Positions 1-536 of a DNA stretch of 536 nt are shown here, piece by piece. Position numbers and translations under genes: made by a program. The stretch's first letter is position 1, and every line of letters begins with the position of its first letter. The stretch lies in assembly GCF_003334335.1 (NCBI RefSeq), contig NZ_QOWQ01000172.1; one strand, 5' to 3'. The notes under the pieces were generated by a model. The model saw only the letters and a program-made list of their open reading frames with translations. It was not told the DNA's origin and did no database searches. This DNA is from Escherichia coli. GTDB taxonomy: Bacteria; Pseudomonadota; Gammaproteobacteria; Enterobacterales; Enterobacteriaceae.

Positions 1-530
1 TTTTTTGCCCAGCGATGGATGCTGCCGTCAATGTTTCCGGCATCCACATCACCAGGCCAGAGAGCGTAGGCCAGTTCGTCATCCAGTGTTTTCCATGTCT
101 GCTTGTATTCGCGATGAATGGCAGCAATGACCGGGCTGATTTTTCCTGTTGAATTTTCAGTGTACTGTTGATTGGCTCTGGCGCGGGCGAGATCAACAAC
201 AGACGTGTATTTTCCGGTTTCCTTGCGTTCACCTTCGCGACGTTTTTTCCAGATGCGCATCTCTGCCTGAATTTCGGGCCATTTAGCACCAGGAATACAT
301 TTATGCTTAACCCACCCAATGGCGTGCAACTTAAGCTCCGGATACATGGCGTTAACTTCTGGCATTTTCATCAACGCTTCAACGATATGTCCGTCGAATG
401 TTGCCATGTCTTCCTGCAACAATTCCTGTGCGCTAATAACCATATCAACGGTGATGTTTTCACATGTGTCGAACTTAACCATGACAGCGTTCTGTACTTC
501 AGGGGCCAGCTTGTCAAAAGTGACGTTCAT
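1..530 (-). CDS. Hypothetical protein, function unknown; partial CDS (start codon in window, 3' end beyond window position 1)
   Basis: Reverse-complement translation from the ATG at forward 530-528 gives 176 sense codons with no stop: MNVTFDKLAPEVQNAVMVKFDTCENITVDMVISAQELLQEDMATFDGHIVEALMKMPEVNAMYPELKLHAIGWVKHKCIPGAKWPEIQAEMRIWKKRREGERKETGKYTSVVDLARARANQQYTENSTGKISPVIAAIHREYKQTWKTLDDELAYALWPGDVDAGNIDGSIHRWAK, plus a partial codon. All three plus-strand frames hit stops within the first ~150 nt (e.g. TAG at 64-66, TGA in the other two frames). A 176-codon open frame is unlikely by chance, roughly (61/64)^176, well below 1 in 1000. Codon choice (ctg, gaa, aaa, gcc, atc frequent) fits an enterobacterial coding region. 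The ribosome-binding site would lie beyond position 536 and cannot be seen, so the start is provisional. Confidence 0.8.
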   Translation of the reverse strand, partial: MNVTFDKLAPEVQNAVMVKFDTCENITVDMVISAQELLQEDMATFDGHIVEALMKMPEVNAMYPELKLHAIGWVKHKCIPGAKWPEIQAEMRIWKKRREGERKETGKYTSVVDLARARANQQYTENSTGKISPVIAAIHREYKQTWKTLDDELAYALWPGDVDAGNIDGSIHRWAK

Positions 531-536
531 CGGATC

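Follow-up and report, generated by a model that had tools for sequence, protein, structure and literature searches.

An Escherichia coli prophage fragment of a ydfE-type gene and the probable non-catalytic role of the protein segment it encodes

The stretch of Escherichia coli DNA analysed here, referred to as the window, is 536 nt long, and the question it raises is which protein it encodes and what this part of the protein does. In a first-pass annotation, made from the letters alone, the window was described as being filled by a single open reading frame, and the protein of 176 residues was considered unassignable to any known family. The GC content given there, about 48%, agrees with the measured value of 48.1%. 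In the following sections, the reading frame and the gene to which it belongs are identified, the domains encoded by the window are described, and the role that these domains could play in the complete protein is discussed.

Identity, spread and genomic context of the gene

A stop-free frame of 178 codons is present on the minus strand (window 3-536), which fills the window and is open at both ends. The window-filling reading frame proposed earlier is thereby borne out, but on this strand only. Open runs of at least 178 codons, counted in any frame, were obtained in 17 of 20,000 mononucleotide shuffles of the window. Compared with an 86.9%-identical copy from the prophage PPompW_14040, the frame has a dN of 0.076 and a dS of 0.476, resulting in a ratio of 0.16, and 40 of the 70 differences between the two copies are located at third codon positions of the minus frame. 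Based on the rarity in shuffles, the dN/dS ratio and the third-position bias, the frame is a genuine coding sequence under purifying selection. Coding on the plus strand was rejected, as the open reading frames there are at most 45 aa long and the substitution pattern suits the minus frame.

The window is 100% identical to positions 12001-12536 of locus L001 (L001:12001-12536), which are located within a coding sequence (11704-14175) annotated as 'exonuclease'. This coding sequence, from E. coli ATCC 11775, consists of 2,472 nt and encodes a protein of 823 aa (WP_000048435.1), of which the window contains codons 100-277 (Table 1). It is virtually certain that the window represents an internal part of an intact ydfE-type prophage gene. 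The earlier proposal of a 176-residue product holds for the frame, which is the same when read from the ATG at 530-528, but not for the start, since this ATG encodes the internal Met102 of the 823-aa protein and is not a start codon.

Table 1. Position of the encoded features within the 536-nt window
Feature	Window position	Strand	Basis or remark
Internal coding fragment, codons 100-277 of the 823-codon ydfE-type gene (WP_000048435.1)	3..536	-	100% identity, dN/dS, shuffle test
First two bases of codon 278	1-2	-	
In-frame ATG, internal Met102	528..530	-	Full-CDS translation; the upstream frame runs 99 more codons in all matching records
Six-helix domain, residues 102-205	219..530	-	Probably Pfam YdfE_C
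Basic, poorly ordered linker, residues 206-245	99..218	-	pLDDT 55-74, charge, alignment variability
First third of the second helical domain (246-340), residues 246-277	3..98	-	Onset of RecE homology; AF2 helices
DNA identical to the Qin pseudogene ydfE (b1577) of K-12 MG1655	67..536	-	470/470 bases; K-12 diverges below 67 at IS2E

The gene is already catalogued and extremely common in E. coli prophages, and curated families exist for it. The window sequence is present in 4005 of 5426 complete E. coli genomes, at up to six places per genome, and the exact 823-aa protein is found in 7283 index blocks of the assembly collection. Among lambdoid phages, matches have been found in HannyBb (100%), PhiR42_1 (99.8%) and Tritos (98.3%), and also in Evi, mEp460_ev081 and PPompW phages. 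An exhaustive phmmer search of 1.84 billion proteins, with residues 1-345 as the query, returned only 174 representatives (E <= 1e-3). The matches of the window in E. coli fall into identity bands of at least 99%, 95-99% and 80-90%, a pattern that points to several allelic lineages residing in different lambdoid prophages. In the same genome collection, 15 of the places with the window sequence are on plasmids.

The assignment of the residues to known families depends on the library that is used. The window residues belong to phrog_2082, labelled 'exonuclease' (E 1.7e-135), and also match phrog_5943, labelled 'unknown'. The precomputed Pfam matches for the exact 823-aa protein (L011:6001-8472) are PF27430 (YdfE_N), PF27432 (YdfE_C) and PF16473, and the families YdfE_N and YdfE_C, both listed on this protein, carry no function. 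The Pfam-A library that was searched returns nothing for the YdfE segment while the precomputed list does, so that the two evidently represent different Pfam releases. A result of 'no Pfam match' for the window residues can reflect an outdated release.

Residues 100-255 of K-12 YdfE are 100% identical to the corresponding residues of the window product. The earlier view of the protein as unassignable to a known family is contradicted by this identity, by phrog_2082, by PF27430 and PF27432, and by the annotation of the gene as an exonuclease in thousands of genomes. The novelty that had been put forward, on the understanding that a confident database match would remove it, has to be given up as well, as the window is 100% identical to a known prophage and phage gene.

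The K-12 gene (b1577) is the same gene with the same neighbors, dicB-ydfD upstream and an integrase downstream, but it is cut by IS2E at codon 255/256 (ydfE, L006:6079-6999; IS2E, L006:6844-7549), whereas the allele in the window runs on into a RecE-like region and a DEDDh nuclease domain. The source of the window is therefore a strain whose allele is intact, and not MG1655. The annotation of the K-12 ydfE pseudogene extends into IS2E. The PPompW_14040 copy, from an Stx2a phage (L004:3704-6171), is also an annotated pseudogene, due to a frameshift caused by a 4-bp deletion. Together with the IS2 insertion in K-12, this shows repeated inactivation in resident prophages, and the existence of such pseudogene copies indicates that the gene is dispensable for the host.

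In a family of lambdoid E. coli prophages and phages (PPompW, Qin-like, Tritos and HannyBb), the ydfE-type gene comes last among the large genes of the early-left operon, and the prophage adjoins ompW. The gene order is: a cI-like repressor gene, ydfA/B/C, (dicF), dicB, ydfD, the ydfE-type gene, xis and int. The gene is directly followed by xis and int, with no annealase gene (recT) next to it, in all six genomes compared (ATCC 11775, HannyBb, Tritos and three others). The accessory or prophage origin that had been considered is confirmed by this position in the early-left operon, between dicB-ydfD and xis-int and beside ompW.

Within the window itself, no Rfam match at E <= 1 was obtained, and no promoter-like sites or repeats were found. 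A weak terminator-like hairpin with a T-run is present at window 223-250 on the plus strand, antisense to the gene. With one such hairpin against an expectation of 0.6 +/- 0.9 in shuffles, it is probably due to chance.

Predicted domains of the window and catalytic domain of the complete protein

The N-terminal module of the protein was modelled with AlphaFold2 on a 36-sequence alignment, with a mean pLDDT of 90.5. The predicted architecture consists of an alpha/beta domain (residues 1-95), a six-helix domain (102-205), a basic linker (206-245) and a helical domain (246-340). Modelled alone, the six-helix domain reached a pLDDT of 96.0 and a pTM of 0.88. L109, A116, D/E141, A153, M163-x-P165-E166, W185-P186, W195 and R203 are conserved in this domain, mostly at hydrophobic-core or helix-capping positions, with M163-x-P-E166, W185-P186 and W195 in addition to these. 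Its charge is mildly acidic to neutral (pI 5.6), and it is therefore no obvious DNA binder. The linker has a pI of 9.7 and one predicted helix at 212-228, and its length and sequence are highly variable in the alignment. In the part of the second helical domain that starts within the window, AlphaFold2 helices are predicted at 247-257 and 270-281.

The Pfam family YdfE_C probably covers the six-helix domain, a mapping based on the two folded domains that are predicted in YdfE 1-255. The best match of the domain profile among solved structures is Med26 (E 0.019), which was judged to be due to chance and rejected as a relative, so that no match to a structure points to an activity of the domain. 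The 178-aa product itself had no match in the Pfam-A and NCBIfam libraries that were searched. The observation made by eye that no signature can be recognized is in line with this: the segment is without a catalytic or DNA-binding signature, and the Pfam-A, NCBIfam and PADLOC libraries were empty for it. The segment encoded by the window carries no chemistry of its own.

The catalytic part of the protein is located outside the window. PF16473, the Rv2179c-like DEDDh 3'-5' exonuclease family, matches residues 642-813 (E 3.4e-67) and is the sole match of the 823-aa protein in the Pfam-A library searched. The nearest solved relative of this C-terminal domain is T4 DexA (PDB 8kel, E 6e-8), and D7, E9, D119, H186 and D191 of DexA are all invariant in the alignment with it. 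The protein thus resembles T4 DexA, the Rv2179c family of Mycobacterium tuberculosis and EcD in having a DEDDh domain with the five catalytic residues kept. These relatives are, however, small and stand-alone (DexA has 227 aa), without the 640-residue N-terminal extension that holds the window.

Between the N-terminal module and the DEDDh domain lies a middle region that is acidic, of low complexity and marked by a CxxC...CxxC motif. The motif (CxxC-x8-CxxC, CTACGQTGGGNCPDC; L001:13357-13401, residues 552-566) is nearly identical in Rac RecE (518-532 region), including the acidic flank, and it is a probable zinc ribbon. To our knowledge, a zinc ribbon has not been described in RecE. A second motif, GPFYF...G..Y.RANKL.GL.KAL..G..EIT.EEY, is located at residues ~385-433 (about L001:12857-13003), recurs in several relatives (P0005, P0061, P0113) and is missing from K-12 RecE at an aligned gap. 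This motif may represent a small independent mini-domain.

Similarity to Rac RecE and exchange of C-terminal domains

The likeness of the protein to RecE of the Rac prophage is limited to certain regions. In BLASTP, residues 262-627 align to residues 278-592 of K-12 Rac RecE with 39% identity (E 2e-61), including CxxC...CxxC, and no similarity is found outside these residues, neither in the first ~260 residues nor in the catalytic domain. Profile comparison is more sensitive for the N-terminal part, as a family profile of residues 1-350 compared with RecE 1-350 by hhalign matched RecE 175-350 (99%, E 4e-18), starting from residue 164. A profile of the six-helix domain only gave no significant match to RecE 1-250 (E 0.088). 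The relative P0092 is collinear both with the 823-aa protein (102-344) and with RecE 50-339 (E 4e-15). For residues 102-163, the candidate link to RecE is transitive only, via P0092, and the first ~160 residues of the ydfE-type protein have no detectable RecE similarity.

Several entries of this protein, in Tritos, PhiR42_1 and AFDB, are labelled 'exonuclease VIII'. Rac RecE (866 aa) and the ydfE-type protein are alike as large early-left-operon proteins with a long non-catalytic N-terminal part. RecE is, however, a PD-(D/E)XK 5'-3' exonuclease, whereas the ydfE-type protein is a predicted DEDDh 3'-5' exonuclease with no recT after its gene. The NCBIfam equivalog model for exonuclease VIII (NF007259) covers residues 246-623 only, with 278.1 bits against a cut-off of 1269. 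PF06630 and DUF3799 have no match in the 823-aa protein, and a phmmer search with RecE 601-866 misses it. The reading of the protein as RecE was rejected on the missing PD-(D/E)XK domain, the score below the cut-off and the lack of an adjacent recT. As the domain comparisons indicate a catalytic domain of the DEDDh and not the PD-(D/E)XK type, the label is a misnomer and stems from the common middle region.

The C-terminal domain is not the same in all proteins that have the N-terminal module. In 28 long relatives with this module, the last 230 aa form four unrelated groups of 16, 6, 4 and 2 members, and all of these shuffled relatives are labelled 'exonuclease' in PHROGs. In the alignment, residues 1-99 are conserved among the relatives, as is the order of the domains. 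The smallest group, with the DEDDh domain (Rv2179c-like in Pfam), consists of the 823-aa protein and P0005. The group of four has the RecE-type PD-(D/E)XK domain (DUF3799/Exonuc_VIII, Pfam). A recT gene follows P0054, which is of the PD-(D/E)XK type, and none follows P0007 or P0012. These alignments show the N-terminal module to be reused with what are, judged by similarity, different C-terminal domains.

The group of 16 has, in place of a nuclease, a conserved C-terminal domain (alignment A4) with the motifs FGP.G.GWG and DGEA.KKSLTDA.KKALS.LGFSAD. Its members include P0011, P0012, P0020, P0028, P0035 and P0040, with L010:5001-7226 as a locus, and correspond to phrog_2489 and phrog_7838. With a threshold of E <= 0.1, the Pfam family Rad52_Rad22 matches 8 of 15 members, the best E being 0.01, and hhalign against an N-terminal sequence of human RAD52 gave an E of 0.02. 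A profile search of the PDB with this domain resulted in no match. The A4-type proteins may be mis-annotated annealase fusions with a Rad52-like domain. The group of six has a different C-terminal domain without a nuclease signature, the P0007 type (L007:5001-7109). The P0007-type gene is located between kilR and xis-int and adjoins ompW. These proteins may correspond to the nuclease-less 'RecE-2' proteins described in PMC12315714.

Proposed role of the N-terminal module and alternative readings

The explanation that accounts for these observations, and that we consider quite probable as a whole, is that the window contains codons 100-277 of an intact ydfE-type gene and encodes part of the non-catalytic scaffold or targeting portion of a mosaic exonuclease. 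For the more specific role of the N-terminal module as a scaffold or targeting adaptor, the chances are about even. In this role, the parts encoded by the window (six-helix domain, linker and beginning of the second helical domain) would together act as the scaffold or targeting part, either through oligomerization or by binding, at DNA ends or forks, to a partner from the host or the phage. Whatever the type of the attached catalytic domain, the module would position it, and the enzyme would be made early in lytic growth and process DNA ends. The adaptor role is suggested by the lack of catalytic residues, the exchange of effectors, the purifying selection and the compact domains on flexible linkers. 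It also parallels what has been described for RecE. The N-terminal part of RecE is regarded as a 'domain of unknown function' that is not needed for nuclease activity and boosts linear-linear recombination (PMC11611040).

The enzyme would serve recombination, replication or another DNA transaction. A role in recombination is uncertain, because no annealase gene is adjacent and because 3'-5' exonucleases usually oppose recombination, as stated in a survey of Rec modules (PMC12315714). The same survey mentions DnaQ-like nucleases as components of lambdoid Rec modules, as well as RecE relatives lacking a nuclease domain, and describes Tritos as having a Rec module with a nuclease, without an annealase and without an anti-RecBCD protein (PMC12315714). 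Tritos carries the ydfE-type gene with 98.3% identity and is in this respect a close parallel for such a nuclease-only module. The N-terminal module is not dissected in this survey of 'RecE-2' proteins and Rec modules (PMC12315714).

A more far-reaching idea, which we regard as rather doubtful, is that the YdfE-type module would be a portable targeting cassette with which enterobacterial lambdoid phages deliver swappable DNA-end-processing domains to one host or phage partner. The cargo of the cassette would then comprise the DEDDh 3'-5' exonuclease, the RecE-type 5'-3' exonuclease, possibly a Rad52-like annealase, and one further domain. In a variant of this idea, the DEDDh version could also be a prophage defence nuclease.

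As a result of a sequence scan, the window has little significance, since it is a fragment of a very common prophage gene and the exact protein is present in databases. What is useful is that the label 'exonuclease VIII/RecE' is wrong and that the catalytic domain is, by similarity, DexA-like with a predicted 3'-5' direction. In addition, the N-terminal module consists of confidently predicted, family-restricted domains that are shuffled among several effectors. Once defined, the partner of the module would help to account for Rec modules of the nuclease-only type in Chi-rich lambdoid phages, and RecET-type recombineering tools might be improved as well.

An alternative is that the ydfE-type protein is a prophage superinfection-defence nuclease, in which the DEDDh domain degrades incoming modified phage DNA and the N-terminal module senses or regulates. 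This reading, which we judge improbable, starts from the membership of the C-terminal domain, outside the window, in the DexA family and from EcD, a stand-alone DexA homologue of E. coli that protected against T4 (PMC12153337). EcD, also named HREX, is reported to restrict T4 by degrading 5hmC DNA, and equivalents of Trp152 and Asp169 of DexA together with a lost Asp90 would be the features expected of this type (PMC12153337). The ydfE-type gene is prophage-borne and very widespread, and HMMER pairs D90 of DexA with Ala719, in agreement with the report on EcD. This register is ambiguous, however, as MAFFT places Asp718 at this position, and W152 and D169 of DexA, the residues reported for 5hmC recognition, align to Tyr and Phe in the ydfE-type protein. 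EcD is also encoded by another gene, with a cloning primer that translates to MIDTET, compared with MIDLET in the ydfE-type protein. The possibility that EcD is a fragment of the ydfE-type gene was rejected on the basis of this differing N-terminus and of the absence of the primer from all loci compared.

In PADLOC-DB 2.0, neither the 178-aa segment (at E <= 0.1) nor the whole N-terminal module was matched, and the full protein gave just a generic weak DEDDh match at the C-terminus (E 1.7e-5). The position of the gene also argues against defence, as it lies in the lytic early-left operon at the place of the Rec module and not among the lysogeny-expressed genes. The defence or anti-defence function mentioned in the first-pass annotation thus finds no support for the segment in the window; the only link, an indirect one, is the distant DexA-family domain at the C-terminus. 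The scaffold or targeting role remains the preferred reading.

Compared with this role, it is very improbable that the gene is a functionless passenger decaying in cryptic prophages, in which case the window would be effectively neutral. The inactivated copies in K-12 (IS2E) and PPompW_14040 (frameshift) are what such a passenger would leave behind. The dN/dS of 0.16 between the diverged copies of the window argues against neutrality, the gene is intact in the isolated phages HannyBb and Tritos, and the 823-aa protein recurs unchanged in the 7283 index blocks with its catalytic residues intact.

That the window encodes a stand-alone protein of ~176 aa, starting at the ATG at 530-528 and resembling the short database entries of the region (phrog_5943 with 257 aa, and many entries named 'Exonuclease (Fragment)'), is hardly credible at all: in every full-length record, the frame extends without a stop by 99 codons upstream and by 546 codons downstream and is annotated as a single 823-aa CDS, the relatives keep residues 1-99 and the domain order, and the short entries are either fragments from assemblies or the K-12 pseudogene truncated by IS2.
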